Positions 4,507 through 55,592 of a DNA stretch of 64,000 nucleotides are shown piece after piece. Position numbers and translations under genes: made by a program. This stretch comes from Phycisphaerae bacterium. GTDB lineage: Bacteria; Planctomycetota; Phycisphaerae; SM23-33. Every line of letters starts with the position of its first letter. The stretch's first letter is position 1. The stretch spans positions 28,128-92,127 of the forward strand of contig JBAZTO010000005.1 in the NCBI GenBank assembly GCA_041661865.1, in the 5' to 3' direction. The notes beneath the pieces were generated by a model. The model made no database searches. It had not been told where the DNA came from and worked only from the letters and a program-made list of their open reading frames with translations.

Positions 4507-6315
4507 CTACTCTTCGCCCACTTCCAGCACGGCCAGGAACGCCTTCTGCGGGATTTCGACGTTGCCGACCATCTTCATCCGCTTCTTGCCTTCCTTTTGC
4601 TTCTCCAGCAGCTTGCGTTTTCGGCTGATGTCGCCGCCGTAGCACTTGGCCGTCACGTTCTTGCCCACGGCCTTGATGGTCTCGCGGGCAATCACGCGCG
4701 AACCGATGGCCGCCTGGAGCGGGATCTCGAACAGGTGGCGGGCGATCTCCTTCCGCAGGCGGGTGATCAGCCGCCGCCCGCGCACCTCGGCCATGTCGCG
4801 GTGGCAGATGAACGACAGCGCGTCGACGCGGTTGCCGTTGACCAGGATGTCCAGCTTCACCAGGTCGTTGGCGCGGAAGCCGATCAGCTCGTAATCCATC
4901 GTGCCGTAGCCGCGCGTGGCGGACTTGAGCTTGTCGTAGAAGTCGTAGATGATCTCCGCCAGCGGGAACTCGTAGGCCAGGATCACCCGGTCGGCCGAGA
5001 GGTGCTCCTGGGTCTTGTAGGTCGCGCGGCGTTCCTCGGCCAGCTTCATCACCGAGCCGATGGAATCGCCCGGGACGATCAGGTCCACGCGGACCATCGG
5101 CTCGCGGATTTCCTCGATGTAGTTGGGCTCGGGCAGCTCGCCGGCCGAGTCCACCATGAGCGTGGACTTGTCGGTCTTGAGCACCTCGTAGGGCACCGTC
5201 GGGGCCGTCTGCACGACCTCGACATTGTGCTCGCGCTCCAGCCGCTCCTGGACGATCTCCATGTGCAGCATGCCCAGAAAGCCGCAGCGGAAACCAAAGC
5301 CCAAGGCCTCGGAGTTAATGGCTGCAAAGGTCAGCGAGGCGTCGTTGAGCTGGAGCTTTTCCAGCGCGTCGCGCAGTTGGGGGAACTGCGTGGTCGGGCC
5401 GGGATAGAAGTCGCAGAAGACCATCTGCTGGGGCGGGCGATAGCCGGGCCACTGCTCGCCGGCGGGACGGTTGGCCAGCGTGACCGTGTCGCCCACGTGC
5501 ACGTCGGCGATGGTGCGGATGTTGGCCACCATGAAGCCCACTTCCCCGCAGCCCAGCGACGGCACGCTCGTGGCGAACGGGCAGAACTTGCCCATGTCGG
5601 AAATCTGGTAGACCCCGCCGGTGCCCATCATCCTGATCTTGTCGCCGACCTTGAGCTGGCCGTCGAAAACGCGGACGTAAACCACCACGCCGCGATAATC
5701 GTCGTAGGCACTGTCGAAGATCAGGGCCTTGGTCGGCCCGTCCGGGTCGCCCGAGGGCGGCGGAAGCTGATGAACGATGGCCTCCATCATGTCGTCGATG
5801 CCCGCGCCGGTCTTGGCCGAGGCGAAAATGCAATCCTCCGCCGGCGTGGCCAGAAGGTGCTCGACCTGCATGGCCGTGTCTTCCGGGCGCGCCGAGGGCA
5901 GGTCGATCTTGTTGATCACCGGCACGATCTTGAGGTTGTTCTTGCCGGCCAGGTGGGCATTGGCGACCGTCTGGGCCTCGACGCCCTGGGCGGCATCGAC
6001 CACCAGCAGCGCCCCCTCGCAGGCCGTCAGCGCCCGGCTGACCTCGTAGTGAAAGTCCACGTGGCCGGGGGTGTCGATGAGGTTGAGCATGTACGTCTGC
6101 CCGCCCGACTCGTAGGCGATGGTGACGGCCGAGGCCTTGATGGTGATGCCCCGCTCGCGCTCGAGGTCCATGTCGTCCAGCAGTTGCTCGCGCATCTGAC
6201 GCTGGGTGATGGCCCCGGTGCGAACCAGCATCCTGTCGGCCAGGGTGCTCTTGCCGTGGTCAATGTGGGCAATGATGCTGAAGTTGCGAATGTACTTCTG
6301 GTCCATTCCGGCCAT
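4507..6315 (-). CDS. lepA: Elongation factor 4 (LepA). The ORF extends in-frame to 6492, but homology begins at MAGMDQKYIRNFSIIAHIDHGKST
   Basis: It has the LepA GTPase N-terminus and the full-length domain order, ~603 aa from the ATG at 6315. Confidence 0.9.
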   Translation of the reverse strand: MAGMDQKYIRNFSIIAHIDHGKSTLADRMLVRTGAITQRQMREQLLDDMDLERERGITIKASAVTIAYESGGQTYMLNLIDTPGHVDFHYEVSRALTACEGALLVVDAAQGVEAQTVANAHLAGKNNLKIVPVINKIDLPSARPEDTAMQVEHLLATPAEDCIFASAKTGAGIDDMMEAIVHQLPPPSGDPDGPTKALIFDSAYDDYRGVVVYVRVFDGQLKVGDKIRMMGTGGVYQISDMGKFCPFATSVPSLGCGEVGFMVANIRTIADVHVGDTVTLANRPAGEQWPGYRPPQQMVFCDFYPGPTTQFPQLRDALEKLQLNDASLTFAAINSEALGFGFRCGFLGMLHMEIVQERLEREHNVEVVQTAPTVPYEVLKTDKSTLMVDSAGELPEPNYIEEIREPMVRVDLIVPGDSIGSVMKLAEERRATYKTQEHLSADRVILAYEFPLAEIIYDFYDKLKSATRGYGTMDYELIGFRANDLVKLDILVNGNRVDALSFICHRDMAEVRGRRLITRLRKEIARHLFEIPLQAAIGSRVIARETIKAVGKNVTAKCYGGDISRKRKLLEKQKEGKKRMKMVGNVEIPQKAFLAVLEVGEE

Positions 6316-6495: not shown

Positions 6496-6597
6496 TGTTG
6501 ACGCTCTGTTTCATGATGTCTATTATACGTTATAGTATTTTCTCACAGTGTATCGTTACTACTATAGTCTACTGTGCAAACACAAAGGGAGAACGTC
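6496..6597. promoter_or_regulatory. AT-rich divergent intergenic region between lepA (minus) and the HTH-GspE gene (plus)
   Basis: A local GC drop (ttattatacgttatagtattttctcacagtgtatcgttactactatagtctactgtg) with a tatagt/tactat repeat and a GGGAG RBS before the ATG at 6598. Confidence 0.5.
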
Positions 6598-8154
6598 ATG
6601 GCCGCCAAGAAACCCGCCAGGAAAGCATCCGGGCAGTCACCGACCCAGCCCCCCACCAAGCCGGCCAAGGTCGCCAACAGTGGGCCGCCTGCCAAGTCCG
6701 GCGACTTGCTGGAGATGGCCGACGCGATCGCCATGCTCAAGACGACCCGGCCGACGTTCTACCGTTGGCTGCGCGAGGGGAGGTTCCGCGGCATGAAGGT
6801 CGGGCGACAGTGGCGTTTCGAGCGAGGCGAGATTGATCGCTTCCTGCGGGGCGAGGAGCCGCGGATCGAGCTGCGCGGCGACATGAAGCCCCTGCTCAAG
6901 ACCTTGGAAGATCGTGCCAGGACGCACGGCATCAAGGCCACCTCGCTGCCGGCGGACAACGATGTCCAGCGGGCACTGAAGCTGATGCTGGAGTTGGGTG
7001 CGGCCATGGCTAGCGACTTCCATCTCTCGCCGCACATGTCGGAATCCTCTGACACCCGTATCGCGCACCTGCGTTACCGCATCGACGGCGTTCTCTACAC
7101 CATCGCACAGTTCGATGTGCGGTTGCTGCCGCCCATTATTGAACAATGGAAAATCGCCGCACGCATGAATCTTCACGAGTCGCGGCCCCAGGATGGAAGG
7201 CTGACTTTCAACGTGGCCGGCGAGTCCAAACCCGTGGACGTGCGGGTCTGTATCGTGCCCACGCAGATGGGCGATTCGCTGACGGCGCGAGTCCTGCGCG
7301 CCGATGCCACAGCCATCGCATTGGACAAGATCGACTACTCGCCGCGCGACCGCGAGAAAATACTCCGCGCGCTGCATCGGCCCTGGGGACTAATCCTCGT
7401 CACCGGGCCTACCGGCTGCGGAAAGACCACGGCGCTGTATTCATGCCTCTCGCATTACATAAGTCCCGAAGTCAAGATCATGACCATCGAGGATCCCGTG
7501 GAGTTCTCTTTCCCCTGGATGGAGCAGGTGTCGGTGAATCCAAAGGAGGGCGTGTCCTTCGCCTCGGCCATACGGGCGTTCCTGCGGTCGGCGCCCAACA
7601 TCATCATGGTAGGAGAAATCCGCGATCTCGATGTGCTGGGCATCTGCCAGCAAGCGGCGCTGACCGGCCACATGGTCCTGACGACATTGCACGCCGAGGA
7701 TGCCGTCAAGGCCCTTCAGCGGATGCTGGAGATGGGCAGCCCGCCCTTCCTGGTGGCCGACTGCACAAGACTTATCATCTCCCAACGTCTGGTCCGAAGG
7801 CTTTGCCCCTCCTGTAGCGTGAAGGCGGAACCGCCCGCGGCCACACTGCGGAAGGCCGAAACGCTCGCACGCTCGGGCGGGGTCGACTGGGACGCCATCG
7901 GGCATGATTTCCGCAAGGCCGTCGGCTGCATTAAGTGCAGGAAGCTGGGTTATATGGGCCGCAACGTCATCGCCGAAGTTCTCGAGATGACCCCCCAGAT
8001 TGCCGAGGCCCTGCGGCGGAAAGCGTCGCTGGACGAGTTGCGGACCATCGCCGTCGGTGAGGGAATGACCACGATGGCCGCTGACGGTGTGCGAAAGGCC
8101 GCCGCCGGTCTGACCACGCTGGATGAAGTCCTTGGGACGCTGTCGATCCTGTAG
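6598..8154 (+). CDS. GspE/PilB-type secretion ATPase with an N-terminal excisionase/MerR-like HTH DNA-binding domain
   Basis: The N-terminus DLLEMADAIAMLKTTRPTFYRWLREGRFRGMKVGRQWRFERGEIDRFL is an HTH_17-like domain. The C-terminal part has Walker A LILVTGPTGCGKTT, Asp-box MTIEDPVEF, and IMVGEIRD. Confidence 0.8.
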   Translation: MAAKKPARKASGQSPTQPPTKPAKVANSGPPAKSGDLLEMADAIAMLKTTRPTFYRWLREGRFRGMKVGRQWRFERGEIDRFLRGEEPRIELRGDMKPLLKTLEDRARTHGIKATSLPADNDVQRALKLMLELGAAMASDFHLSPHMSESSDTRIAHLRYRIDGVLYTIAQFDVRLLPPIIEQWKIAARMNLHESRPQDGRLTFNVAGESKPVDVRVCIVPTQMGDSLTARVLRADATAIALDKIDYSPRDREKILRALHRPWGLILVTGPTGCGKTTALYSCLSHYISPEVKIMTIEDPVEFSFPWMEQVSVNPKEGVSFASAIRAFLRSAPNIIMVGEIRDLDVLGICQQAALTGHMVLTTLHAEDAVKALQRMLEMGSPPFLVADCTRLIISQRLVRRLCPSCSVKAEPPAATLRKAETLARSGGVDWDAIGHDFRKAVGCIKCRKLGYMGRNVIAEVLEMTPQIAEALRRKASLDELRTIAVGEGMTTMAADGVRKAAAGLTTLDEVLGTLSIL

Positions 8155-8228
8155 CGAGGCGGGCGGCGGCGGGATATCATCAGCACGCGCGGCCGGTTGG
8201 CCGTAATAGCGACTAGCTCTGTCGCTCG

Positions 8229-8320
8229 TCAAACGATGGATCGGGTGCCACTGCTGCGGTGTTTGCAGCAGTGTCGACGCTATGCACGGCTGCACACGAC
8301 GCAGCCGTGGCACCCATCGC
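8229..8320. repeat. Left copy of a ~92-bp structured repeat with two internal hairpins; its inverted partner is at 10305-10394
   Basis: It is ~90% identical to the reverse complement of 10305-10394. It contains internal palindromes CTGCTGC-N7-GCAGCAG and CACGGCTGC-N7-GCAGCCGTG. Confidence 0.8.
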
Positions 8321-10274
8321 TTCATCTGCGACAGAGCACCAAAGGCGCTCGCGGCGTCACGATACCCAGGTGTGCGTGCCCAGGAACAGCGACACATTGC
8401 AGGTCGTGCCACAAACAGGCCCCAGAACCGTCGTGATCGCGGCGGCGCTGGTGACGTTGACGCTGGCTGCGTACGCTTCGGTGCTGGCCTGGGGCGGGTT
8501 TGTCTGGGACGACAACCTCCTGCTGACGGAGAACCGCGTCATCGCCTCCCCCGACGGCCTGGGCTTGTTCTGGGCCGCCGGAAAGTCCTTCGACTACCTC
8601 CCGCTGACCTGGAGCACGCTGTGGCTGGAGTGGCGGGCCTGGGGCGCCAGCCCCACCGGCTACCACGTGACCAATGTGCTCCTCCACGCCGCCAGCGTCG
8701 TCATGGTCTACCTACTGCTGCGGAGGCTCAAGGTCCCCGGCGCGATCCTGGCCGCGGCGATCTTCGCCGTCCACCCGGTCAACGTCGCCTCGGTGGCCTG
8801 GATCAGTGAGCGGAAGAACACGCTCTCGATGCTCCTGTACCTGCTGACGATCCTGGCGTTCCTGCGGTTTGATGATCGGCGTCGATGGACCGACTACGGC
8901 CTGGCCCTGCTGCTCTTTGCCGCCGCGCTGCTGTCGAAAAGCTCGGTGGTCTGTGCCCCGCTGGTGCTGGCGGCGATCCTGTGGTGGCGTCACAGCCGGC
9001 TCGCCTGGCGCGGTCTGCTGGCCGTCGCGCCCTTCCTGCTGCTCTCCGTGGCGGGCGCGATCGTGACGGTACACTTCCAGAACACCCAGGCCATCGGCGA
9101 GAGCACGCCCCGGCCTGAGGGGTTCCTCTCGCGCCTGGCCGTGGCGGGCATGGCCCCGTGGTTCTACCTATCCAAAGACCTGCTGCCGACGAACCTGGCG
9201 ATGATCTACCCGCGATGGACGGTCGCCGGGGACAGCGTCAGGGACTTTCTCCCCGGCCTGGCCATCCTCGCGGGCCTGGCCGCCCTGGTGATGCTCCGCA
9301 AAAAGCCCTGGGCCCGCGCGACGCTGCTGGCGGCGGTGTACTTCCTGCTCAGCCTGCTGCCGGTGCTGGGCTTCCTACAGATGTCCTTCCACGAGCACTC
9401 GCTGGTGGCTGACCACTGGCAATACCTGGCCATCCTGGGGCCCATCGCGCTGCTGTCGGCGGCGGCGTGGCGTTTCGCCTCGCGACTGCCCCGCGAGGGT
9501 CTCCGTCTGCTTTGCGTCGCCGGATTTAGCCTGATCGTCGCGATCCTGACGCTGCTGACCTGGCGGCAGGGACTGGCCTACCGCAACGCCAATGCCCTGT
9601 GGACCGACACGCTGAAGGCCAACCCCGCTTGCCCTGAGGCCTACTACGACCTCGGCCGAAGCATCAGCACCTCCGGCCTAGCCGACCGCTCGGTGGTTTA
9701 CTTCCTCAAGGCCATCGAGCTCCGCCCGCGATACTCCGAGGCCCACAACAACCTCGGGTACGACTACGTCACGCTGGGCATGACGGAGCTGGCGGCAGAG
9801 CATTTCGCCAGGGCGGTGGAATTCAATCCCTCCAACATCGAGGCCCGTTTCAACCTCGCCCAGACCCTGTGCGATCTGGGACGAACGAAGGAGGCGGCTG
9901 GGCAGTACCGCGAACTAAGCCGCCAGACCTCCAACTGGCTCGCCCGCCCGATGGCCAACTTCGCCAGAATCCTGGCCAGCGCCGACGATCCCTCCGAGCG
10001 AAACGGCGCCGAGGCGCTGCGATGGGCCCGGCGGGCCTGCCAGGTCAACAAGTATCAGAACCCGATGTATCTGGACACCCTTGCCATGGCCCTGGCCGAG
10101 ACGGGGCAATTCGACCAGGCTGTGCAGACCGCCAACCAGGCCCGCTCGATCGCCCAGCAAACCGGAAAGGCCAGCCTGGCCGGGGAAGTGTCCGCGCGGA
10201 TCGAACTGTACCGCCAGCATCGGCCCTATCGAGAGGGACGACCACAGACGCAACCGGCCCGGCAAGTTCCCTAG
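8259..10274 (+). CDS. TMTC/PMT-like GT-C membrane glycosyltransferase with C-terminal TPR repeats. The start is uncertain: the ATG at 8259 lies inside the repeat, and GTG at 8432 is an alternative
   Basis: It has multiple TM helices, an FVWDD motif near the N-terminus (the DD motif of GT-C O-mannosyltransferase-like enzymes), and C-terminal TPR-like repeats (AYYDLGRS, AHNNLGY, ARFNLAQ). Confidence 0.65.
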   Translation: MFAAVSTLCTAAHDAAVAPIASSATEHQRRSRRHDTQVCVPRNSDTLQVVPQTGPRTVVIAAALVTLTLAAYASVLAWGGFVWDDNLLLTENRVIASPDGLGLFWAAGKSFDYLPLTWSTLWLEWRAWGASPTGYHVTNVLLHAASVVMVYLLLRRLKVPGAILAAAIFAVHPVNVASVAWISERKNTLSMLLYLLTILAFLRFDDRRRWTDYGLALLLFAAALLSKSSVVCAPLVLAAILWWRHSRLAWRGLLAVAPFLLLSVAGAIVTVHFQNTQAIGESTPRPEGFLSRLAVAGMAPWFYLSKDLLPTNLAMIYPRWTVAGDSVRDFLPGLAILAGLAALVMLRKKPWARATLLAAVYFLLSLLPVLGFLQMSFHEHSLVADHWQYLAILGPIALLSAAAWRFASRLPREGLRLLCVAGFSLIVAILTLLTWRQGLAYRNANALWTDTLKANPACPEAYYDLGRSISTSGLADRSVVYFLKAIELRPRYSEAHNNLGYDYVTLGMTELAAEHFARAVEFNPSNIEARFNLAQTLCDLGRTKEAAGQYRELSRQTSNWLARPMANFARILASADDPSERNGAEALRWARRACQVNKYQNPMYLDTLAMALAETGQFDQAVQTANQARSIAQQTGKASLAGEVSARIELYRQHRPYREGRPQTQPARQVP

Positions 10275-10304
10275 CGGCGTCAGTATTGAACCTGCGATTT
10301 GGGT

Positions 10305-10394
10305 GCGATGGTGCCACGGCTGCGTCGTGTGCAGCCGTGCTTGACGCAGACACTGCTGCAAACACCGCAGCAGTGGCGCCCGATCCATCGTTTG
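10305..10394. repeat. Right copy (inverted) of the 8229-8320 repeat
   Basis: This is the reverse-complement match to the left copy. The spurious ORFs 9915..10400(-) and 8197..8436(+) translate to the same MDR.PLLRCLQQC peptide, which confirms the DNA identity. Confidence 0.8.
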
Positions 10395-10407
10395 AGTCAC
10401 CGATCGC

Positions 10408-13400
10408 TTACCCTTTGGGCGCGACCTCCAACGTCACGGGCGACATCAGGCCATGAGGGGTCAGTTGGTAATCGGTGATCCAATGTTTCTCGTTGGGCAT
10501 GAAGTTTTCCGGGCCGGTCCAGCGGGTCCAGGGCGTGTGGAGCGGGCCCAGGATGTTCTTGCGCCCGCCGATGACCTCGACGACCACTTCGTTCTCGCCC
10601 TCGGCCATCGCGTCGGTGATCTCCGCCACGAAAGGCGCCCACGGCATGGGCAGCACCTTTCCGTTGACATGCACCTCGGCGGCCGTGCATGCGACGTCCT
10701 TGAGGTTGATCCGCACGCGGCCGCGGGCGGGCTTGGTCACCCGCAGCTTGTATCGCACCGCCCCGCCGTAGAAGTCCAGCCCCTGGTTCAGCCAGGAACC
10801 CAGCTTCAGTTGCCCCGGCCGAGACACCAGCGTCATGTTGCCCGGGGCCGGGGAAGCCTGGCCTCGCCTGGCGACGCCGAAATCGCCCACCAGGTACAGG
10901 TCCTCGATCTCCATGTCGGCCCGGTAGTCCATGCTCAGCACGATCTCGTTGTCGCCGGCCTGGAGGCTCGATGCGATGTCGATGGTCTTGATGTCCTCGT
11001 CGATCCACCACCCATCGATGGCCCCGACCGGCTTGCCGTTGACAGTGATGCGATAGTTTCCGGGGCACTCCACCGCCAGCTTGCACTGGCGCGGCAGGAC
11101 GGTCACGTGGGCCATCCATCGCAACTGGACCGCTCCGCGGGGCTTGGTGTCCAGGACGCCGGTGGCGTACAGATACCACGGCTGGCAGAGGCCGTTGTCG
11201 CGCACGCCAAGGCCGAAGTGCTTGCGGATCAATTCCTCGGCCTTGAGCGTCGGCACGGGCTGGGAGAACTCCGCCTCGCCGATGCGGTACTGGCAGTAGT
11301 CCAGCGGCAGTGAGTTGGCCTCGGCCAGCTCGATGTCGAAGGGGCCGGCCAGGGACTTGGCCTCGCGCCAGACCGTTTCCTTCCTTGGCGCGGCGGCGTC
11401 GGGGCAGGCCAGACCCAGGCTGATCAGGGCCGAGCCGGTGGGGTCCAGGTGCAGATCGAACTCGACCCGCCCTGCCGCACTGTCGGCCTTGAGTCTCTTG
11501 CGCTGGCCCGTGACGGCGTCCCACAACACTACCGGCTTTCGCCCAGCCAGCGAGATGCGCACCTCCCTGGCGGCCTTGCGGTCGTGCGACTGGACGAACA
11601 GCAGTTGCCCGCCCTTGATCGTGCGCAGCATGGCCCAGACGTTACGCTCCTGCTTGCCGTCGGCGGCGGAGATTGAAACGCGCCGCGGCAGGACGGCCTC
11701 GATGGCGGGGATGAATTCCTCCACGCGGGCGCCGCAGCAGATCGCCTTGGCCGCCAGCGCGTCGCAGGCCGGGTCGGCCTGGCCGTCGATCCGATCGGGA
11801 CGCTGGCCGATGAAGACGACCTTGCCGCCCCCGGCGATGAAGCGCTCCAGCAGCCGCAGCGTCGTCTTGCAGATCGTCAGGCTCGGCGGAACGACCACCA
11901 GGCGGTAGGCCATCTTGCCGACCTTGATCTTGTCCTTGGCGGTCTTGCCGTGCCGGGCCAGCAGCGACTCGTCGGCAAAGTCCCAGTCGTAGTGCTCGCC
12001 CAGCAGGCCGTACATGATGGTGTTGAGCGATTCCTCCAGCATGTCCATCGTCTTCTTGGCCGCGGGGGCCATCACGCCCCAGGCGCTCTCGATGGGATGC
12101 AGCACCAGCACGTCGCGAACGGGCGCGCCCTGGGCGAGCATCAGGCTCAGGCGGCCGAAATAGTCCTCGACGATCTTGTACTGCTTCCACCACGGGCTGT
12201 GGTCGCAGATGCTGGCGGGATAGTCGCGCTTGGCCCCGCCGGCCAGGCTGTAGTGGAACAGGTGCGGGCAGCGGAAGTTGACGCCGACGGCGTACTGCCA
12301 GTCGCCGGTAAACTTGTGGCCTTCCAGCGGCCAGTCCCAGCCGGTGCAGCCGTACAACTCCGTCAGCACGCGATCGTGCCCCATCTGGTCGGCGACGCTG
12401 GTGCACTGCTTGGCCGTGATGAGTTCCTCAACCTGATCGCTCAGCAGGTCGATCCCCGGCCACTGCATGTGCTCGTAGTGCGGCATGCACGAGCCGACGT
12501 AGGTAGACTGGTAGCGAAGCCCGCCCTCGGCCAACTGGTGTCCCGTCAGTGCGAGGTTGTGCTCGACACACCACCGCCCGATCTGCACCGAGAAGCCCTC
12601 GACATACAACTCGGTGATGGTCAGGAAGTAGTCGCGAAGGACTTTGCTGAAGCCGCCGCCCACCGAGCCGTACGCCAATTCGGGCAGGTGGGCCAGCAGG
12701 TCGTAGCCGCGGCGGCGCTTGAACTCCTGCGGCAAGGCGGCCGTCCAGGGGAGGCGCGTGCCGGACGGGGTGCCGGGAAGACAAACCTGGCCGAAGTTGG
12801 GCTCGTCGGTGAAAATGGCCGGGATCACGCCGCCGGGATTGGCGAAATCCTTGCTGTATCGCTGGGCATACGCCTCGTGCGTCACGCGGATATACTCAGC
12901 CACCGCGGCGGGGTTCATCGTGTCCAGGTACGTGCCATCGTTGTGCCAGCCGATGGGCTGGTCACGAAGCAGGTCGAACGCCTCGCGCCGGAAGCCTTCC
13001 GGGGTCGGCGCGCCCTCGGCAGCCGGCGCGTAGGCCAAGACTTTGCCGTCGGAGGCCGTCTGAATTTCGAAGCTCGCCAGCCGCTGCGCCCCCTCGGCCG
13101 GGGCAGGCTCGGCGCTGAGCGTCACGTACGCGCTGCGGAACTCCGGGTGCGGGCGGGTCACCAACCCGCCGGCAGCGCCGCTGGGCCAGCGGTCCTCATC
13201 GTAGAGATAGGCCTTCATGCCCAGTTCGCGGGCCTTTTCCACGCACGCCGATACGCAGCGGAACCACTCCTCCGAGAGGTACTCGTTCTTCAGGCCGTAG
13301 CGGCTGTGCATGAAGAAGCCGCCCATGCCCGCGTCGTGCATGCTCTGGATCTGGCGGCAGAGGCGGTCGGGGACGAGTTTGTCGTTCCACGACCAGAAGG

Positions 13401-13464
13401 GCGCACTGCGGTAAATGGAAGGCGGGTTTTGCCACGCACTCAACAGGTCGGCCGGCTGCTCCAT
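10408..13464 (-). CDS. Large (~1018 aa) glycoside hydrolase, family not determined (possibly alpha-L-rhamnosidase/GH106-like)
   Basis: The N-terminus APFWSWNDKL...MHDAGMGGFFMHSRYGL...YLSEEWF and the long multi-domain body are typical of large GH enzymes. No signal peptide was confidently seen. Confidence 0.5.
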   Translation of the reverse strand: MEQPADLLSAWQNPPSIYRSAPFWSWNDKLVPDRLCRQIQSMHDAGMGGFFMHSRYGLKNEYLSEEWFRCVSACVEKARELGMKAYLYDEDRWPSGAAGGLVTRPHPEFRSAYVTLSAEPAPAEGAQRLASFEIQTASDGKVLAYAPAAEGAPTPEGFRREAFDLLRDQPIGWHNDGTYLDTMNPAAVAEYIRVTHEAYAQRYSKDFANPGGVIPAIFTDEPNFGQVCLPGTPSGTRLPWTAALPQEFKRRRGYDLLAHLPELAYGSVGGGFSKVLRDYFLTITELYVEGFSVQIGRWCVEHNLALTGHQLAEGGLRYQSTYVGSCMPHYEHMQWPGIDLLSDQVEELITAKQCTSVADQMGHDRVLTELYGCTGWDWPLEGHKFTGDWQYAVGVNFRCPHLFHYSLAGGAKRDYPASICDHSPWWKQYKIVEDYFGRLSLMLAQGAPVRDVLVLHPIESAWGVMAPAAKKTMDMLEESLNTIMYGLLGEHYDWDFADESLLARHGKTAKDKIKVGKMAYRLVVVPPSLTICKTTLRLLERFIAGGGKVVFIGQRPDRIDGQADPACDALAAKAICCGARVEEFIPAIEAVLPRRVSISAADGKQERNVWAMLRTIKGGQLLFVQSHDRKAAREVRISLAGRKPVVLWDAVTGQRKRLKADSAAGRVEFDLHLDPTGSALISLGLACPDAAAPRKETVWREAKSLAGPFDIELAEANSLPLDYCQYRIGEAEFSQPVPTLKAEELIRKHFGLGVRDNGLCQPWYLYATGVLDTKPRGAVQLRWMAHVTVLPRQCKLAVECPGNYRITVNGKPVGAIDGWWIDEDIKTIDIASSLQAGDNEIVLSMDYRADMEIEDLYLVGDFGVARRGQASPAPGNMTLVSRPGQLKLGSWLNQGLDFYGGAVRYKLRVTKPARGRVRINLKDVACTAAEVHVNGKVLPMPWAPFVAEITDAMAEGENEVVVEVIGGRKNILGPLHTPWTRWTGPENFMPNEKHWITDYQLTPHGLMSPVTLEVAPKG

Positions 13465-17990: not shown

Positions 17991-20606
17991 CTACTTGCGG
18001 CGGCGAATCAGTGCCAGCGCGCCAAGGCCCAGCAGGGTCATGGTCGCAGGCTCGGGAACCGACTGCATGTCCGGCGCCCAGGCGGGATGGCTCCAGCCCC
18101 AGTTGCCGGCCAGCAGAGACAGGTCGCCGGTGCCAACGACGCCGTCGCCGTTGAAGTCGCCATTGTCCCAGCCCTTGCCGCTCATGCCCCAGCTACCGGC
18201 CAGGAGGGAAAGGTCGCCGGTGCCGACAACACCGTCGAGATTCGAGTCGCCGCGAACGGTGCCCAGGACGCCCAGAACTTCATTCACGTCGTTGGCATCG
18301 ACCTTAAGGTCGCCGTTCATATCGCAACTGAGGTCCATCTTCACCGCCTGGTCCAGGTTGGCCCAGTCGCCGAAGTTGGCAGTGACATAGTTGATGTCAT
18401 TGGCATCCACCGAGTAGTCATGGCCGCGGGGATCGGCCCCGGCGGCAGTGGTCTTGCCGGCCACGTCGGCCATGGCAGCGCCGGCGGTGTAAGGCTTGCC
18501 GGTCCTCAGCGTCGTGCCCTTGGCCGTGAAGTTGGGATCGGTCACGGCCAGCTTGGCGTAGTTGGCGTCGGCGAAGAAGCAGGTGCCTTTCAGGGCCATC
18601 CACTTCTGATCGACCTGCGTGAAGGCCGCCTTGCGGTTGAGTTTGCCGTTGGCGTCAATCGCCAGGCCGTCGGCAAAATAGCGGATGTCCAGCGAATCGA
18701 AGTTGCCGTCGCCGTTGAAATCGCCCAGAACCTCGGTGATCGCGAAATCGCCGGCCTGGTCGCCACGGTTGCCGCCGTGGTTGATGTTCTGCTCGAAGGT
18801 GCGAGGAGAGTTCAGAGCCACCATCATCTGATTGGCGTCAGCAAGATTCCTGGCGCCGTTGTCATCGAAATCGCCCGCGATCTTGTTGCGTTCCGCCAGC
18901 TTCAAGCCGCCGGCATAGGTTCTGCCGTTGGCGTCGGTGTAAGCGCTGGTGCTGCCGTCGCTGTACAACGTGCCGCCGGTGAGGGTGGTCCGCACGGGGA
19001 TATACCCGTTGGGGGCCGAACTCGTGCCGATGTCGTTGACCACGATGGTGCTGTTGTTTTGGGTGTACGTCTGTAGGGCTTCATTGACGGTGTTGGCGCC
19101 GAAACTGGTGGGGTTCGTCGCATCGGGCACTGCATCGATCGCGGCCATCGGGAAGTAGCTGTAAGCCAGGTATTCGCCCGGCATGTTGTAACTGAGATTG
19201 GAATCGGGATTGCCCGCGAAGGCCGCGATGCTTTCGGTGATGTTGCGGATGTAGGCCGCCGCGGCGCGGTTGCTCATCTGCGGGTTGCTGTTAAGCGCGC
19301 CGTAGGTGCTGTTGATGGCGGTGGCCTGGGGATCCCCGACGGTCACGAACGTCTCGGGGCCGCCGACCTGGTAGCCGGTGTTGGGGTCAGAATTGTCCAG
19401 AACGGTGGACACGGTCGGCCGGACATAGGGAGCGCTGCCGCGGTTGGCATCCTTCACACCGTTGGCGTCAATGTCCTTCTGGACATTGAGGATGTCGAAA
19501 CTGCCGCCGTTGGCGGGCGTGGCGGCGGAATCCAAGCCGGCATAGCCCACCATCAAACGGTGGTTCTTGACGCCGGCAACCATATGGCTGGTGCTACCGT
19601 AGTTGCTCGTCTGCGTGTTCTTGCCGATATTGCCCGAGCTGCTCGAAGTGGTCTGGTTGCCGATGTTCTCGCCCGCGCCGAAGGCGGGGTCGACGCCGAT
19701 GCTGTTCATCGCGCCGTTGCGAGTGCCGGAAGCCGACTCGCGAGTGCCGGCCACCAGGTTCTCGCCGTTGGGCATTCTGCCCGTCACGTAGAGATGCTGC
19801 AACTCGGTCATCTTGACGTTGCCGTCCTGGATGCCCGTGCCCTGGTTGGCCATGAAGGCGGTGGCCACCCACGACACCGTGGTGTCATAGACGGAGGTGG
19901 AATTGGCCACGGTGTTGGAGTCCGTGTCCACGGCGTTGAGGTTCAGAGCGCCCAGGCTGACCAACTGGTTGGTGAAACCGGTGCTGCTGGTCTTGGTGTT
20001 CTGCCCGTAGCCGTCCTGAGTGGGCTTCTTGTTCCAGGCGGCGTTGGAGGAAGAACCCGCCTTGACGAACCACGTGGTCGGCACGTCCATGACGGCGATG
20101 TCCACGTTGTTGGGCGTGACCGGAGTGCCACCGGGGTGATTGTTGGGGTCGCCCGTGACGCCCGGGGGACTCGCAATGGTGCCACCCGCGGCGAACTGCG
20201 TGCGGTTAATTATTGCGAAGGATGTCGCCGGCTTGAAGAGCGCGGGCGGACCATTGGCCTCAACCGGCTGGGTGTTGTAATAGGCCACCAGTTCGTCCAG
20301 GCCGTTGCCCGAGCCGGTCGCGCGATACTGGACTGTCCAGTACGGGCTGGCAAGGTAATTGCTGTCGGCCAACTGGTCGACGTAGGGCGAAGATCCCCAA
20401 AAGCCCTTGTTGCCGTCAGTGTCGACGTCGATGAAGTCGTTGGTGCTGGCGGGGGACTTGAAGAAGTTCTGGAACAAAGTCGCGCCGCCAATGTTCACTT
20501 GGCCAGTGTTGACGTAATTTGGGTCCGATGCCCGGGCCGCACTGACGGTGGTCAGCATCGCCGCCGCCAGAATCAAGCCCAGAATGCCATTGTTCTTAGA
20601 TAACAC
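17991..20606 (-). CDS. Large secreted PEP-CTERM protein with dockerin-type repeats; GTG start
   Basis: It has a signal peptide and repeated DxNxDGxVxxxD dockerin-like Ca-binding loops (DFNGDGNFDSLD, DSNLDGVVGTGD, DFNGDGVVGTGD). The C-terminus VPEPATMTLLGLGALALIRRRK is a PEP-CTERM sorting signal. Confidence 0.85.
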   Translation of the reverse strand: MLSKNNGILGLILAAAMLTTVSAARASDPNYVNTGQVNIGGATLFQNFFKSPASTNDFIDVDTDGNKGFWGSSPYVDQLADSNYLASPYWTVQYRATGSGNGLDELVAYYNTQPVEANGPPALFKPATSFAIINRTQFAAGGTIASPPGVTGDPNNHPGGTPVTPNNVDIAVMDVPTTWFVKAGSSSNAAWNKKPTQDGYGQNTKTSSTGFTNQLVSLGALNLNAVDTDSNTVANSTSVYDTTVSWVATAFMANQGTGIQDGNVKMTELQHLYVTGRMPNGENLVAGTRESASGTRNGAMNSIGVDPAFGAGENIGNQTTSSSSGNIGKNTQTSNYGSTSHMVAGVKNHRLMVGYAGLDSAATPANGGSFDILNVQKDIDANGVKDANRGSAPYVRPTVSTVLDNSDPNTGYQVGGPETFVTVGDPQATAINSTYGALNSNPQMSNRAAAAYIRNITESIAAFAGNPDSNLSYNMPGEYLAYSYFPMAAIDAVPDATNPTSFGANTVNEALQTYTQNNSTIVVNDIGTSSAPNGYIPVRTTLTGGTLYSDGSTSAYTDANGRTYAGGLKLAERNKIAGDFDDNGARNLADANQMMVALNSPRTFEQNINHGGNRGDQAGDFAITEVLGDFNGDGNFDSLDIRYFADGLAIDANGKLNRKAAFTQVDQKWMALKGTCFFADANYAKLAVTDPNFTAKGTTLRTGKPYTAGAAMADVAGKTTAAGADPRGHDYSVDANDINYVTANFGDWANLDQAVKMDLSCDMNGDLKVDANDVNEVLGVLGTVRGDSNLDGVVGTGDLSLLAGSWGMSGKGWDNGDFNGDGVVGTGDLSLLAGNWGWSHPAWAPDMQSVPEPATMTLLGLGALALIRRRK

Positions 20607-32242: not shown

Positions 32243-34093
32243 TCACTTCGACCCACGACGACGAATCAGCGCCAAACCGCCCAGACCCAGCAGAGTCATA
32301 GTCGCCGGCTCGGGAACCTGCATGTCCGGAGCGGGAGCGGCCGACTGGCCGTTCCAGCCCCAGTTGCCGGCCAGCAGCGACAGGTCGCCGGTGCCGACCA
32401 CGCCGTCACCGTTGAAGTCGCCGTTGGTCCAGGTCTTGCCGCTCTGGCCCCAACTGCCGGCCAGCAGGGACAAGTCGCCGGTGGAAACCAGGCCGTCACG
32501 GTTGGCATCACCCTTGCGGGCATAAATATTGGTCTTCACCATGTAATTGGCCGTGGGGCCGCTGCCGCCCGGCCAATAGATGCTGCCGTTCCAGGCCAGC
32601 GCCGTCACGTTGGGGTCGATCAGCCCATTGGCGTCAGCGAACGCATAGTTGCTGGCGTTGACCGTCAGGTTGCTCGTGAAATTGGTGAAGTTGCCGCTGC
32701 TGCCGCTCCCGTTGAAGTTGGTAATGACCGCAAAGTCCTTGTTCGCATAGGGGACGTAGGAACTCGACAGCATCTGCACGTCGAGCGTTCTGCTGGCTAG
32801 GCCCGTAAGATCAAGGTCTGAACCGCTTATGTCGATGTTCGAGTAATCGGTGGCGCTGCCGATTTCGACACCGACCTTGACCGTGCCGGAGGTGTCGCTG
32901 TTGGCACTGGTCTCCAACCCGAAGATCTTCACCGTGGCATCCTTGCCGACATTCAAGGTGGCCTGGATCGGGTAAGCGCCAACGCCCAGGAAGACTCGCT
33001 TCGAGGTCAGCAGCGTGCCGGTGCCGGTCACTTCAATCAGGCCCTTGGAGATGCCGGTGCCACCGGCAGTGGGGTGATCGCCGACAATTATGCCGCACCA
33101 CCCTACGCTGACGTCGTGTTGGAAGGTGCCGCCGGAAATCTTCAGGGCGCCGTTGCCGTCATAGTTGAAGTTGTTCACCTGGCCAAGTATTAGCCACGGG
33201 CTGGCACTGGTGCTTGCCTGCCCCCAGACCATCGAGCCGCCGGTCACGTTGATCAAGCCCGTGGCGGTGCCGCTATAGAATCCCGGATTCCCCATCCCGG
33301 CTCCGCCGATCACCGGCGTACTGGGGCATTTGATGATGGCCTCTCCGGCGTTCATATTATAAATGCCGGTGCCGCCGTTCCTTCCAATGTAGGAAAAGCC
33401 GTTGGGCTCATACAAGCTGCCGCCGTTCTGGTTGAGGATGCCCAACCCGCCGGACATGCCGATCTCGCCTGCTTCAGCCATGCCGCTGATGAGATTGCCG
33501 CTCTGGAGATTGTATGTGCCTTTTGGAATATAGTAGCTGTTGCCGTCCGGAACGCCGGTATAGACGCCCCCAGTGAATCCCTCGCCGACGTACAGGCCGC
33601 CGTTAGTCAGTGTGACGTCGCCGTACTGGGTCACCGTTCCATCATACCGGGTTGCCACCTTCAGCTTATAACCTGCCGTCAGGCTGGCGCCACTTTGGAT
33701 CACCAGGCTGCTCGCGGCCTGATACAGGATCGGGTAGTCGGTGGTACCGGGGGCATAGCCTTCGATCAGCCCGACCCTTTCGCCGCCGACGATGGGCGAA
33801 TACGCCGTGGCGGATGTTCCGGACGTAATGGTGCAGGAAGCTCCATTACGCACATACACCTGGTCGCATGCATCAGGCGTCGCCGTCGGGAATTCCGGAT
33901 GGTCGGCGCCCAGGTAGGAGTCGGTAACCTTGTTTCCGCGGGCGCCGGGAAGCACGGTGAAGTTAGCGGTGCCCCAGGTGCCGTTGGTCGTGTTGAAATC
34001 AATACTATTGGAATCAAGGGCCAGGGCCGAACCACTGCCCACGGCGATCATCGCCACACAAGCAACCAGGCAAAGCCATAATTTGATACTCAT
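32243..34093 (-). CDS. Secreted PEP-CTERM protein with dockerin-type repeats, paralog of 17991..20606
   Basis: It has a signal peptide. The C-terminal cassette DANRDGLVSTGDLSLLAGSWG...DFNGDGVVGTGDLSLLAGNWG...VPEPATMTLLGLGGLALIRRRGSK is nearly identical to the other paralog. Confidence 0.85.
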   Translation of the reverse strand: MSIKLWLCLVACVAMIAVGSGSALALDSNSIDFNTTNGTWGTANFTVLPGARGNKVTDSYLGADHPEFPTATPDACDQVYVRNGASCTITSGTSATAYSPIVGGERVGLIEGYAPGTTDYPILYQAASSLVIQSGASLTAGYKLKVATRYDGTVTQYGDVTLTNGGLYVGEGFTGGVYTGVPDGNSYYIPKGTYNLQSGNLISGMAEAGEIGMSGGLGILNQNGGSLYEPNGFSYIGRNGGTGIYNMNAGEAIIKCPSTPVIGGAGMGNPGFYSGTATGLINVTGGSMVWGQASTSASPWLILGQVNNFNYDGNGALKISGGTFQHDVSVGWCGIIVGDHPTAGGTGISKGLIEVTGTGTLLTSKRVFLGVGAYPIQATLNVGKDATVKIFGLETSANSDTSGTVKVGVEIGSATDYSNIDISGSDLDLTGLASRTLDVQMLSSSYVPYANKDFAVITNFNGSGSSGNFTNFTSNLTVNASNYAFADANGLIDPNVTALAWNGSIYWPGGSGPTANYMVKTNIYARKGDANRDGLVSTGDLSLLAGSWGQSGKTWTNGDFNGDGVVGTGDLSLLAGNWGWNGQSAAPAPDMQVPEPATMTLLGLGGLALIRRRGSK

Positions 34094-46014: not shown

Positions 46015-46087
<73 letters not shown>

Positions 46088-46233: not shown

Positions 46234-46445
46234 GCGGCGCGTTGCTTGGCCCAGTAGTTCTGCCAGAGATTGGAGTAGTACAGGCTGGCCAGGGCCACCA
46301 TCGACTCGGCGTTGTCCTTGTCCCAGTGCATTCCGTGGCCCTTGAGACGCCGGGTCAGCGTCCCGCAGAACAACTCCGTTGGCCCGCTGCCGCAGTCGTA
46401 GCCCTGTGGCTTGACGTGGTCGGCGACTGCGCCTCTTTCACCTGT
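46234..46445 (-). pseudogene. 3'-terminal gene fragment without a start codon (possible mobile-element remnant next to tRNA-Lys)
   Basis: The in-frame translation ...GYDCGSGPTELFCGTLTRRLKGHGMHWDKDNAESMVALASLYYSNLWQNYWAKQRAA* is bounded upstream by a stop, with no plausible start. The family was not identified. Confidence 0.3.
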
Positions 46446-46476
46446 TCATCTGCTCCACGACTCACCTGCTCTATTT

Positions 46477-46502
46477 GAAAAGCCCGCTTTCGCGGGCTTT
46501 TC
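46477..46502. terminator. Bidirectional intrinsic terminator
   Basis: gaaaAGCCCGCtttcGCGGGCTtttt is a perfect palindrome flanked by A- and T-tracts. Confidence 0.8.
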
Positions 46503-46557
46503 GACTCGGGGTGGGTGGACAGTTTTAGAACTGCGGTCGCAAGCCATTCGGTCGATC

Positions 46558-46938
46558 CTACCCCCTCTTTGCCTCACGAGAGATGGGGGCGGCGGCCAGC
46601 GTGAAGAGTACGACCTTCTCGCCGGTTATGGTGCTGATGTCGTGGTGCAGGCTTACCACCCTGGTCCCTGTGACGCCTTCAACCATGGCCTCCAGCGCCG
46701 GCCGTGCCGTCTCGGTCAACTGGGTCCGCACCTGTTTGAGCAGGTCCCGGCCCGTCTCGGGCGCGAGTTGGGCGACCAAATGCTGCTCGGCCGATGTCAG
46801 CACGCCGTGGAGACGCACCAGGAGAAGATCACCAAAGAGGTGGGCGTGGATGTCCTTGGGGCCACGGCCCATGTACTCCTGCTCAAAGCGGCTGATCCCT
46901 TCGCAGATAGCGGCTTCGATTTCGCCCTGTGTCTTCAT
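46558..46938 (-). CDS. DUF2294 (MpsC-like) family protein, paralog 1
   Basis: It is 126 aa (MKTQGEIEAAICEGISRFEQEYMGRGPKDIHAHL...). It is 85% identical to 55593..55979 and related to 58136..58594. Confidence 0.75.
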   Translation of the reverse strand: MKTQGEIEAAICEGISRFEQEYMGRGPKDIHAHLFGDLLLVRLHGVLTSAEQHLVAQLAPETGRDLLKQVRTQLTETARPALEAMVEGVTGTRVVSLHHDISTITGEKVVLFTLAAAPISREAKRG

Positions 46939-47149
46939 AGAGCACCATCGAACCTGCCGTGACTGGCGGCTTCAAGACCCGCGAGCCAACGCGCGTAACG
47001 CGTTGCTGTAGCAGCAAACAACGGCTGGCCGGCAGTCTCACGTATGTCATTCATCTTAGGAGGCGCCAAATGCGATTTCCTGAATTATCTGCTTTCGGGC
47101 GCCCACCGCGCTACAATGCCCACGTGGCGGAGCGTGCATGAATGCATGG

Positions 47150-47262
47150 GCTCCGGAGTCGGATGACTAGATAAAGGGCAGCCCGGCGCATCGGGAGGCC
47201 CGTTGACGAGTAAGCCGACGCGGTTCTTCACCTTTGGGTGTTAAGCCGCGTCGGCTTTTTTT
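47150..47262 (+). ncRNA. Candidate structured cis-regulatory RNA or small RNA, copy A, with intrinsic terminator
   Basis: It has the conserved core TCGGATGACTAGAtgAAGGGCAGCC-hairpin-GGGAGGCCCGTTGACGAGTAAGCCGACG and a terminator gccgacgcgg...ccgcgtcggc plus T8. A TACAAT -10-like hexamer lies at 47111. Confidence 0.65.
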
Positions 47263-47342
47263 TCTTGGCCGTGCAATCGACAAGTAGGAGTGAAGCTTGA
47301 CGAACCGGCAGCAGAGTAAGCTGAGTCCAGAAAGGGTAAATC

Positions 47343-49979: not shown

Positions 49980-50076
49980 CATTGGCCCAGATAGATATTT
50001 ATTCTGTATTCCATTTGATTCGGGCGTATTGGGCGCTAGGATGGGGTTTCCGCAGAGCGATAGAGCCGTTCGCACG

Positions 50077-50158
50077 CTCTGTGTCGGATGACTAGATGAA
50101 GGGTAGCCTGGCCCGGCCGGGAGGCCCGTTGGAGAGTAAACCGGCGTGGAAGGTGTCC
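50077..50158 (+). ncRNA. Candidate structured cis-regulatory RNA, copy B, without a terminator; its 3' end is the RBS of the downstream gene
   Basis: It has the same conserved core (TCGGATGACTAGATGAAGGGTAGCC-hairpin-GGGAGGCCCGTTGGAGAGTAAACCGGCG). It is followed by GGAAGG-5 nt-GTG of the DUF1570 lipoprotein. A TAGGAT -10-like hexamer lies at 50037. Confidence 0.55.
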
Positions 50159-51157
50159 GTGCGTTTGTACCTCGCAACGATCGTGGTGGCGACCGGCCTG
50201 ACCCTGGGGGGCTGCGCGCCTGATTCCCAGAGGCAGGCGCTCAATGCCACCCCTGCAAGCAACGCGCCCCCCTGTGCTGCCCTCGCCTCTCAAGTCGGCC
50301 AGACCCTCCAGGTCCACGAGACGGATAGGTTCCTTGTGCTGTCGGCCGCGAACGACGCCTCCGCGGCCGCGACCGGGCAGTTCCTGGAGCAGGCCTATCT
50401 CCGGTTTTACGAGCAGTTCACCCTGGCCGGCTTTGAGCCCAAGCCTCCACGGGACAAATTGACCTGGGTGTGCCTCAACTCCTACGGCGCCCTGGAGGCC
50501 TACGGTCGGGCTGCGGACGGCGCGGACGTGTCGTGGATGGATGCGTACTACTCGCACCGCACCAACCGTGTGGCGGCGGCCATGGCGGCCGGTCGCCCGG
50601 CGCCACAGGCAAGAGTCCGCTCATCGGGTTCCCCTGGCAAGATCGCCGCCTTCAGCGATCCGGGCGGCGGCCAGATCGCCTCCGGCAGCCTTAACATCAG
50701 GACCATCACCCACGAATTGACCCACCAGTTGGCCTTCAACACTGGACTGCAAAGGCGTGGCGTGACCTATCCCTTCTGGCTCACAGAGGGACTGGCCACG
50801 AACTTCGAGGCCGATTCCCCGAAGTCGGTCGGCCTGGGTCGACACGACAGCCGCTATGGCCCGCGACTGGTCGAGGCCAAGGCCGGCGGCAGGTTGATCT
50901 CGCTGGAACAGTTCGTTGGGATGACGGAGTGGTCCGCCGGCCAGGGGACCGCTACGCGTGATGCCTATGCGGAATCGTGGGGGTTATTCCGCTACCTGCT
51001 GGAGCGGCATCCTGTCGCTCTCAAGAAGTATATGGCCGAGATTTCATCGGTGTGGCTCCCGCCGCAGAACAGTGAGTCTCTACGCCGGCGATTCATCGCC
51101 GCTTTCGGCCCCATCAAGCCGCTGGAGGCGAACTTCCTGCGGTCCGTTGACAAGTAG
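50159..51157 (+). CDS. DUF1570-family lipoprotein with an HExxH motif (start taken as GTG at 50159; the listed ORF starts at 50096 inside the RNA element)
   Basis: It has the signal and lipobox LTLGGC, ITHELTHQ as a putative zinc-binding HExxH, and Planctomycete DUF1570-like architecture. Confidence 0.6.
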   Translation: MRLYLATIVVATGLTLGGCAPDSQRQALNATPASNAPPCAALASQVGQTLQVHETDRFLVLSAANDASAAATGQFLEQAYLRFYEQFTLAGFEPKPPRDKLTWVCLNSYGALEAYGRAADGADVSWMDAYYSHRTNRVAAAMAAGRPAPQARVRSSGSPGKIAAFSDPGGGQIASGSLNIRTITHELTHQLAFNTGLQRRGVTYPFWLTEGLATNFEADSPKSVGLGRHDSRYGPRLVEAKAGGRLISLEQFVGMTEWSAGQGTATRDAYAESWGLFRYLLERHPVALKKYMAEISSVWLPPQNSESLRRRFIAAFGPIKPLEANFLRSVDK

Positions 51158-51367: not shown

Positions 51368-51376
51368 TATGTCACT

Positions 51377-51450
51377 CGGGGCGAGAGGATTTGAACCTCC
51401 GACCCCCTGGTCCCAAACCAGGTGCTCTAGCCAAGCTGAGCTACGCCCCG
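51377..51450 (-). tRNA. tRNA-Pro (anticodon TGG)
   Basis: CGGGGCG acceptor pairs with CGCCCCG, the D-arm is GCTCAGCTTGGCTAGAGC, the anticodon loop is TTTGGGA, and the T-arm is GGTTCAAATCC. Confidence 0.9.
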
Positions 51451-55397: not shown

Positions 55398-55592
55398 GGA
55401 AACTCCCCTACTGCCTAAAGACGTAACACCTTCGTGGCGTTGTAGTGCCAGACCCTCGGACCCCGCCGGGGCCCAATGAGAGAGGATTATAGAGTGCAGG
55501 GCATGGATAACAACAGGATTGCGCGGGGAGCGGACAGGCCCGCGGCCGCTGGATCGTGCCAGGAGCTTGGGCGCGGGGCAGGCAGCCCCGCC

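Follow-up and report, generated by a model that had tools for sequence, protein, structure and literature searches.

Di Nocera et al. 2013 (PMC3733652), in the parts of that paper used here, describe dimers of repetitive extragenic palindromic (REP) sequences that are embedded in longer palindromes, in super-families tagged by GTAG or CGTC. The same parts name "TIRYTs", Y1 transposases that have long terminal inverted repeats (TIRs) at their flanks instead of REPs. Here we report on a 64-kb stretch of DNA from contig JBAZTO010000005.1 of a Phycisphaerae bacterium (the window, meaning the whole stretch analysed), in which a gene for a GT-C-type glycosyltransferase is bracketed by two inverted copies of a nested hairpin repeat. 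Most likely (probability about 0.8) the two copies belong to a family of small, nested and dispersed palindromes, of the kind of REP dimers, REPINs (REP doublets forming hairpins) and miniature inverted-repeat transposable elements (MITEs), and no gene-specific switch. A full-text literature search gave no description of such a repeat family in Phycisphaerae. The hairpin-repeat family of Phycisphaerae-type planctomycetes is previously undescribed.

The repeat search placed the two arms of the pair at 8229-8314 and 10310-10395. They were 86 nt each and 93% complementary, with 1995 nt between them, and formed the longest inverted repeat of the whole window. In the pairwise alignment the common block ran from TCAAACG at 8229 to ATCGC at 8320 in the left copy, and covered 10305-10395 in the right copy. 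Six substitutions and one indel separated the two, and five of the six substitutions lay in an 11-nt spacer. Two palindromes were the same in both copies: CCACTGCTGC-GGTGTTT-GCAGCAGTG (8248-8273 and 10351-10376) and CACGGCTGC-ACACGAC-GCAGCCGTG (8285-8309 and 10315-10339). Either palindrome had exactly two occurrences in the window, where dinucleotide shuffles would give none. A covariance model of the 30-nt unit that underlies both palindromes found exactly four units in the 64 kb, with E values from 1e-8 to 2e-7. No further copies of the element were detected in the window by exact or mismatch search, by the repeat search, or by the covariance model with its filters off. The inverted repeat is genuine and goes well past what chance would yield.

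These results agree with the first-pass annotation of this DNA, which had described inverted repeats of about 92 bp around the gene, each with two named palindromes. For the left copy the core stood as described, and the length did not, as outer arms (8216-8239 and 8314-8337) extend this element to about 8214-8341.

The repeat is built from a 30-nt unit with the consensus GGTGCC-AC-N-GCTGCG-NNGTN-TGCAGC-N-GTG. Its first 5 nt (GGTGC) are the head; a 10-bp stem (CAC-N-GCTGCG / TGCAGC-N-GTG), which a G.T pair closes, encloses a loop of 5 nt (YNGTK). Each window copy is a doublet of two related units, one T-type and one G-type, on opposite strands, with their heads outward and an 11-nt spacer between them. 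The two units of a doublet are mutually complementary, and two folds are open to the doublet, a pair of small hairpins or a single long one. The inverted relation of the two copies stands although each copy is nearly palindromic in itself: the T-type unit and its flank TCAAACGATGGATCG are outermost in both, and a same-strand comparison of the copies would match a T-type against a G-type unit, with 5 of 30 positions different. The left doublet lies inside an outer palindrome, GCTCTGTCGC...GCGACAGAGC, whose arms are 79% complementary, and the RNA/DNA fold of 8215-8340 reached -73 kcal/mol (z -7.5). These arms, cTA followed by GCTCTGTCGCTCGTCAAACGATGGATCG on one side and ending in CATCGCTTCATCTGCGACAGAGCAC on the other, are recognisably related to those of full-length family members elsewhere, which read G..GTCAA..-doublet-..GACAG.GC.AC after cTA. 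The right window copy had no convincing outer arms. Rfam 15 at the gathering threshold gave two tRNAs over the window and no family match at the elements, and a permissive scan of 8150-10450 returned only sub-threshold hairpin look-alikes (at most 17 bits, with thresholds of 84-100).

An RNA panhandle between the two copies has to be weighed. A transcript that started upstream of 8229, for example by read-through from the T2SSE-family gene, and continued past 10395 could pair its two 86-nt segments, and the duplex would control the stability of the glycosyltransferase mRNA (as an RNase III target) or its translation. The predicted energies fit such pairing, at -187.5 kcal/mol for the duplex between the copies versus -51.8 plus -46.3 (about -98) for the local hairpins, but this would be so for every inverted pair of REP copies. 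The T2SSE and glycosyltransferase genes share one strand, and the scans predicted no sigma-70-like promoter and no U-tract terminator between them or at the elements. The unit stems are also the same in both copies. Each copy would, however, fold locally on transcription (z -7.5 and -3 to -4), about 2 kb before its partner was made, and transcripts may already be stopped or processed at the left hairpin. The majority of family members are solitary and stand beside unrelated genes, and no feature sets the window pair apart. We therefore consider the panhandle quite unlikely.

Similar units were present in other genomes. An exact scan for the T-type hairpin in GTDB genomes, one per species, gave 27 stretches, including those on 15 contigs in five planctomycete metagenome-assembled genomes (MAGs) labelled Phycisphaerae, Phycisphaerales, "Planctomycetaceae" or "planctomycete". 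The 15 planctomycete stretches had the GGT head together with the loop consensus, and in most cases a partner unit too. None of these features was seen in the remaining 12 matches (Streptomyces, cyanobacteria and others), which we took for chance. With a degenerate unit pattern, at least 120 metagenome contigs were matched. A set of 135 loci (759 kb) held 230 units in 155 elements.

Across this set the architecture of the window copies recurred. Head-out doublets numbered 68, versus eight other close arrangements, and 60 of the 68 were heterodimers, the T-type units always pairing with G-type units. The doublet spacers measured 8-130 nt, with modes at 16 nt (30 doublets) and at 11 nt (eight doublets, both window copies among them). 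One locus (L026) had a tandem array of three doublets with a 157-nt period. Copies inside one MAG (e.g., L011 and L018) had subfamily-specific spacers and flanks in common, as do the two window copies, which suggests spread or homogenisation within genomes.

The hairpin itself appears to be maintained. At stem pair 9-27, which the search pattern left free, 72 distinct units had G-C in 55 cases, U-A in 14, A-U in two and no pair in one, and double changes were also seen at pairs 10-26 and 11-25. Altogether 97.5% of the stem cells were paired, with 27 double-change cells versus 4.2 in shuffles (0 of 500 shuffles reached 27), and the pairing collapsed on shifting the 3' partner by one to three columns. 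For the remaining stem positions, which the search pattern had set, invariance is uninformative. Three loop positions were free in the pattern and were conserved all the same: G15 in 227, T19 in 229 and T21 in 211 of the 230 units. This asymmetric conserved loop points to sequence-specific recognition, not structure alone. The head positions, all set by the search pattern, were G1 in 229, G2 in 230, T3 in 226, G4 in 229 and C5 in 229 of 230 units.

The distribution of the family was that of a dispersed repeat. By our gene calls and coding fraction, both from a rough home-made log-odds caller, 134 of the 155 elements (86%) were intergenic, versus about 81% coding and 19% non-coding sequence. 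The flanking gene pairs were tandem, divergent and convergent in 46, 17 and 12 cases, tracking intergenic length. The 142 neighbouring genes fell in 177 Pfam families, none of which occurred in more than three genes. These neighbours are housekeeping genes (e.g., purA, ispD, recA, dnaB and pheS). No transposase was among the 25 most frequent Pfam families of the neighbours, which include all those common to at least two genes. Elements were also enriched about three-fold at contig ends, with 37 of 134 elements on whole contigs lying less than 100 nt from an end where about 13 were expected, which suggests that they are multi-copy within genomes. A Logan contig of the same organism (L148, 10.7 kb) stops inside the right window copy. 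In one case presence and absence could be compared directly: L080 carries a doublet at 5793-5870, and the orthologous convergent intergenic site in L053 (~2243-2311) is without it. The first-pass annotation had listed a REP/MITE-like extragenic pair among its options, and a dispersed, intergenic, structure-conserving family in many genomes of uncultured planctomycetes supports that option. It had also said that many copies without gene bracketing would make the element a generic REP; for the family as a whole, counted over many genomes, this case applies, with 155 elements, mostly single and beside unrelated neighbours.

How special, then, is the bracket? In the fetched loci a second element was met about once per 37 kb of extra sequence, and the window has two elements in 64 kb. 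At this density about one in ten elements is expected to have a partner within about 2 kb, so a bracket is unremarkable. Other single genes were bracketed likewise: a B12-binding radical SAM gene (L011), a gene for a prepilin-type N_methyl protein (L125) and an open reading frame (ORF) without Pfam match (L075). In L001, 190-nt direct repeats (567-756 and 2104-2293, 92% identity), each with a unit, enclose a small gene pair that we take, from the translation alone, to resemble DUF4160/DUF2442 (toxin-antitoxin-like). The bracket in the window is probably incidental and not tied to glycosyltransferases.

The bracket could also be read as an invertible or mobile cassette, in which the pair would serve as recombination sites that flip 8321-10304 (phase variation of a surface glycosyltransferase), or as the ends of a composite transposon moving the gene. 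Repeats of 86 nt at 93% identity suffice for RecA-dependent inversion, and the outermost units of the bracket are both T-type with their heads outward, like transposon ends. The enclosed gene pair of L001 would be a parallel, though its repeats are direct. An inversion would, however, move no promoter relative to the gene, because the 5' region and the stop of the gene are both inside the bracket. Similar brackets enclose unrelated genes in other loci. When the genes between 3 and 16503 were scanned with Pfam, no recombinase, invertase, integrase or transposase was found in 1-16.5 kb of the window, which bears out the earlier remark that no recombinase is nearby. The bracketed gene matches its neighbours in GC content (63-70%). 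With about 52% identity in even its closest homologs, nothing points to a recent spread of the cassette. As the GC content is not anomalous, acquisition of the gene by horizontal transfer was rejected. Only one orientation was seen (in the window and in L148), which is uninformative as the short-read contig breaks within the repeat. A cassette of this kind is in our judgement very improbable. We give equally little credit to the broader idea that the inverted pair, with its stems kept identical, acts jointly on the GT-C gene, be it by an 86-bp RNA duplex in a read-through transcript that gates expression or by occasional RecA inversion as a REP-based on/off switch of a surface-glycosylation enzyme.

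A function for the host, which would be compatible with an origin as mobile DNA, was weighed too. The copies could be signals or binding sites under selection, such as bidirectional factor-independent terminators, stabilisers of mRNA 3' ends or sites for nucleoid or topology proteins, and the pair would then insulate the gene. Enterobacterial REP elements and bacterial interspersed mosaic elements (BIMEs) are known to act in this way, according to the sections of PMC3733652 consulted. The position of the right copy is exactly between the stop codons of two convergent genes, and the left copy follows a stop by 60 nt. Head and asymmetric loop remain strongly conserved even between genomes whose LepA proteins have 74% amino-acid identity. 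For terminators in particular, no U/T tract follows either copy (the hairpins are followed by CATCGCTT... and CCATCGTTTGAG...), and the terminator scan predicted no intrinsic terminator at 8214-8341 or 10305-10395. Moreover, 17 of the 75 classifiable elements are between divergent genes, where terminators are unexpected, and the distribution tracks intergenic length. Enrichment at contig ends and the polymorphism in presence and absence point to repeat dynamics. On balance we find a host function doubtful as the main explanation.

Returning to a dispersed REP-dimer/REPIN/MITE-like family, the copies would be non-autonomous elements that spread, now or formerly, through an enzyme that acts in trans and recognises hairpin, head and loop. 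By analogy this could be a HUH/Y1 transposase like that of the REP-associated tyrosine transposases (RAYTs), with single-stranded DNA as its substrate; should the flanking TA be a target duplication, a DDE transposase would be the alternative. We regard the HUH/Y1 (RAYT-like) enzyme as the leading candidate mover, because the family has autonomous small hairpins with a conserved unpaired head, head-out heterodimers, variable spacers and tandem clusters. The two window copies would have landed independently in the two intergenic regions that flank the glycosyltransferase gene, forming a bracket without designed function. Each copy may incidentally serve as a stable RNA hairpin that protects 3' ends or blocks transcription behind the T2SSE, glycosyltransferase and GH106 genes.

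One Y1_Tnp gene was found in the fetched loci (L135, Pfam 4.7e-13). It lies at 7059-7742 on the minus strand, within an element at 7043-7788, and encodes about 222 aa; it is IS200-like, of the PVC group, with at least 8000 database relatives at E<1e-10. The 13-bp inverted repeat GGGGACACAATAC / GTATTGTGTCCCC consistently flanks this gene and its relatives (L149-L161), and extra solo 13-mers occurred in L041 and L049. The clade (relatives P0172, P0234 and P0122; 13 loci) was rejected as the mover of the hairpin family, as it is flanked by this other inverted repeat. Two further identities were also rejected. Integron attC sites do not fit, since the copies are inverted and not direct, have no visible GTTRRRY / RYYYAAC ends, and in the L026 tandem have no genes between them. 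Neither does CRISPR, with only two copies here and, elsewhere, arrays of whole doublets at the 157-nt period.

Several observations weigh against a REP-like family of this kind. The scan for HUH/Y motifs over the 759 kb of element loci and the window found no Y1_Tnp gene flanked by GGTGCC units, and no parent autonomous insertion sequence with the same termini was found in the window, the fetched loci or the neighbouring genes. The REP tag GTAG (or GT[AG]G) abutting the stem is absent from the unit; where GTAG is present, it is confined to the outer arms, and to some copies. At about 108 nt, the L080/L053 indel exceeds the 78-nt doublet, and its boundaries are imprecise. The intergenic statistics carry the roughness of the gene caller. 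In the 64-kb window only two copies were seen, and both flank one gene. Their units (bar the right T-type head, GGCGCC) and inner flanks are the same and their spacers differ at 5 of 11 positions, which shows constraint or homogenisation, not simple neutral decay. The flanks of 12 full-length copies were mixed as well, with TA on both sides in five, direct tc/tc in one and inverted ctg/cag in one.

The full-length form brings in a classical MITE as an alternative to the REP-like reading. In a large subfamily the doublet is embedded between GTAGTCCGTCAACTTTGATTATGTG and CGCAGATTCAATTGTGACAGGCTAC, with cTA before the former and TAg after the latter. Full-length copies are about 130 nt long, and their arms, GTAGTCCGTCAAC... 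and ...GTGACAGGCTAC, form TIRs. The arms are nearly always joined to units (31 of 32 and 20 of 22 cases), and as they rarely occur without units, arms and doublet make up one element of about 130 nt. A DDE transposase of IS630/Tc1-like or IS5-like type, with duplication of TA or CTAG, could have moved such an element. The flanks of the full-length copies, with GTAG...CTAC between cTA and TAg, would fit this, as would the five copies with TA on both sides, the non-palindromic direct tc/tc of one copy and the left window copy, which starts with GCTCTGTC after cTA. TA and CTAG are, however, palindromic and may equally be the ends of an inverted repeat, a reading that the ctg/cag copy also fits. 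Many doublets, the right window copy included, are wholly without arms, and no DDE transposase with such ends was found among the neighbouring genes. We keep the classical MITE as a tentative possibility.

The bracketed gene encodes a protein of 613 aa with PMT_2 and C-terminal TPR domains, an architecture that matches its earlier label as TMTC-like. The longest ORF starts at GTG 8259, inside the left copy, and in the N-terminal alignment its first ~55 codons had no counterpart in the homologs. A 100%-identical database protein (P0001, on a 106-kb JGI contig) also has 613 aa, a length that fits a start at GTG 8433, and the codon-usage log-odds gene call chose the same codon. The gene most likely starts at GTG 8433, to judge from homology and coding signal. 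This codon is 113 nt past the shared core and about 92 nt past the full left element, and the left repeat would thus be in an intergenic or 5'-untranslated region and not over the start codon. Two claims of the first-pass annotation have to be revised here. The left copy had been said to overlap the predicted start; only the mechanical longest ORF begins in the repeat, and homology sets in from about codon 55. Further, an annotated ATG had been placed between the repeats, and no in-frame ATG is found near the 5' end of the gene; ATG 8282 is in another frame (ORF 8282-8809).

The T2SSE-family ATPase upstream has an N-terminal HTH_17 (excisionase-type helix-turn-helix) domain (2.4e-11), which is an unusual fusion. 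Also upstream are the isc operon (IscS, IscU, IscA, HscB and HscA) and LepA on the minus strand. Beyond the GH106 gene there are a sigma-70 factor and a porin. The related contig L077, with 74% amino-acid identity in LepA, carries neither a T2SSE nor a glycosyltransferase nor a GH106 gene beside LepA. The coordinates of the elements, of their parts and of the three genes are collected in Table 1.

Table 1 Positions of the two hairpin elements, their parts and the adjoining genes in the 64-kb window.
Feature	Position	Strand	Context or evidence
Full-length left element (outer palindromic arms + core doublet, ~128 nt)	8214..8341		60 nt past T2SSE stop, ~92 nt before GTG 8433
Left core: TCAAACGATGGATCG, T-type unit, 11-nt spacer, G-type unit, CATCGC	8229..8320	+	Repeat search, alignment
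T-type unit GGTGCCACTGCTGCGGTGTTTGCAGCAGTG	8244..8273	+	Pattern; covariance model 49.9 bits, E 2.4e-8
11-nt spacer TCGACGCTATG	8274..8284		Sole substantially differing part between copies, 5/11 positions
G-type unit GGTGCCACGGCTGCGTCGTGTGCAGCCGTG (minus-strand reading)	8285..8314	-	Pattern; covariance model 51.8 bits, E 9.8e-9
Right core, inverted orientation	10305..10395	-	31 nt past glycosyltransferase stop 10274, 13 nt past GH106 stop 10408
G-type unit, same as 8285-8314	10310..10339	+	Pattern; covariance model 51.8 bits
T-type unit, head GGCGCC instead of GGTGCC	10351..10380	-	Pattern; covariance model 45.6 bits
GT-C-type glycosyltransferase (PMT_2 + C-terminal TPRs), 613 aa	8433..10274	+	Pfam PMT_2 3e-9 + TPR families; homologs
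T2SSE-family secretion ATPase, upstream neighbour	6574..8154	+	Pfam
GH106-like glycoside hydrolase, convergent downstream neighbour	10408..13464	-	Pfam

Other repeats were noticed on the way. The window has four direct copies of a sequence of about 116 nt (47150-47265, 50076-50191, 56194-56309 and 57806-57921; 60-83% identity), which belong to an unrelated palindromic family. A 46-nt palindrome, AAGCCGACGCGGTT...AACCGCGTCGGCTT, is present in at least three, and the repeat may represent a further element of this genome, of REP-like or terminator-like type. Direct repeats of 268 nt and 108 nt (82-91% identity) at 46566-46939 and 55604-55980 lie over the ORFs 46411-46962 and 55476-56045. These are probably paralogous genes, each followed by one of the ~116-nt palindromic repeats; tRNA genes are nearby (46015-46087 and 51376-51450). 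A second pair of direct repeats, of 63 nt and 160 nt (82-83% identity), was found at 17998-18251 and 32256-32512, 14.3 kb apart. Judging by sequence only, they may be paralogous gene ends resembling a PEP-CTERM-type sorting-signal region. Among the fetched loci there was a further palindromic family, with a core of about CACGGCTGG.TTGCC.AGCCGTG, in L055 (~7020-7075 and 7152-7210), L052, L095, L079, L120, L140, L071 and L093. In L055 this repeat directly flanks a full-length GGTGC element, so that several nested hairpin-repeat families exist in such genomes.

For the annotation of this locus, our results mean that the glycosyltransferase gene should start at GTG 8433 and not within the repeat, and that the flanking repeats are not to be taken for a regulatory switch without experimental evidence. 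The repeats also explain why short-read assemblies of the organism break at this locus. The new family is recognised by a 30-nt unit, the GGTGC head, the conserved loop, head-out heterodimers and optional outer arms, and it could serve as a marker for strain typing or for assembly gaps. To our knowledge, the planctomycete phylum is nearly without genetics. The family is further a test case for REP-like spread without an evident flanking RAYT gene. How CGTC-tagged REPs spread is raised as the same open question in PMC3733652, in the sections that we draw on.

Compared with known systems, the family is closest in anatomy to the REP/BIME sequences and REPINs of E. coli, Pseudomonas and Stenotrophomonas, as described in the parts of PMC3733652 used. 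It has in common with them an imperfect palindrome of 20-40 nt with an unpaired conserved head, and inverted unit pairs with a variable spacer that can form a long hairpin, are mostly heterodimers and occur in tandem clusters. Like REPs in the same source, it is intergenic, independent of the function of its neighbours and divided in genome-specific subfamilies. Unlike in REPs, the planctomycete head is GGTGC and not GTAG, the heads point outward and the loop is conserved in sequence. Unlike RAYT-REPs, the family had no RAYT gene flanked by its units in the fetched loci, and its hosts are Planctomycetota (Phycisphaerae). The tagged super-families, as far as those portions of PMC3733652 describe them, have the same general anatomy, and the outer arms GTAGTCCGTCAAC of the full-length copies contain GTAG and CGTC strings. 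These strings are, however, 20-28 nt away from the units and form no tag abutting the stem, and the stem and loop of the unit do not match the consensus features quoted in that text for the tagged families (a comparison by description only). The Y1_Tnp gene of L135 and its relatives have the TIRYT-type arrangement of the same paper, again as described in those portions.

With inverton systems (fim, hin and those of Bacteroides) the window pair shares inverted repeats that flank a DNA segment. Invertons differ in having repeats of about 10-30 bp, which usually flank a promoter and not an entire gene together with its 5' region, and a dedicated recombinase; the window repeats are copies of a dispersed family, with no recombinase in 1-16.5 kb. 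The likeness to MITEs (Correia/NEMIS of Neisseria, ERIC/IRU, RUP and Nezha) is in the size of about 70-130 nt, the TIRs, the single long hairpin, the intergenic position, the possible co-transcription with neighbours and the possible TA duplication, as in Correia or IS630-derived MITEs. Unlike MITEs, the element consists of two small hairpins, each autonomous, whose spacer varies freely, a REP-like trait. As the unit does not carry the GTAG tag and an association with RAYT is putative, we do not place the family among the RAYT-REPs and file it as a REP-like/MITE-like family of planctomycetes.

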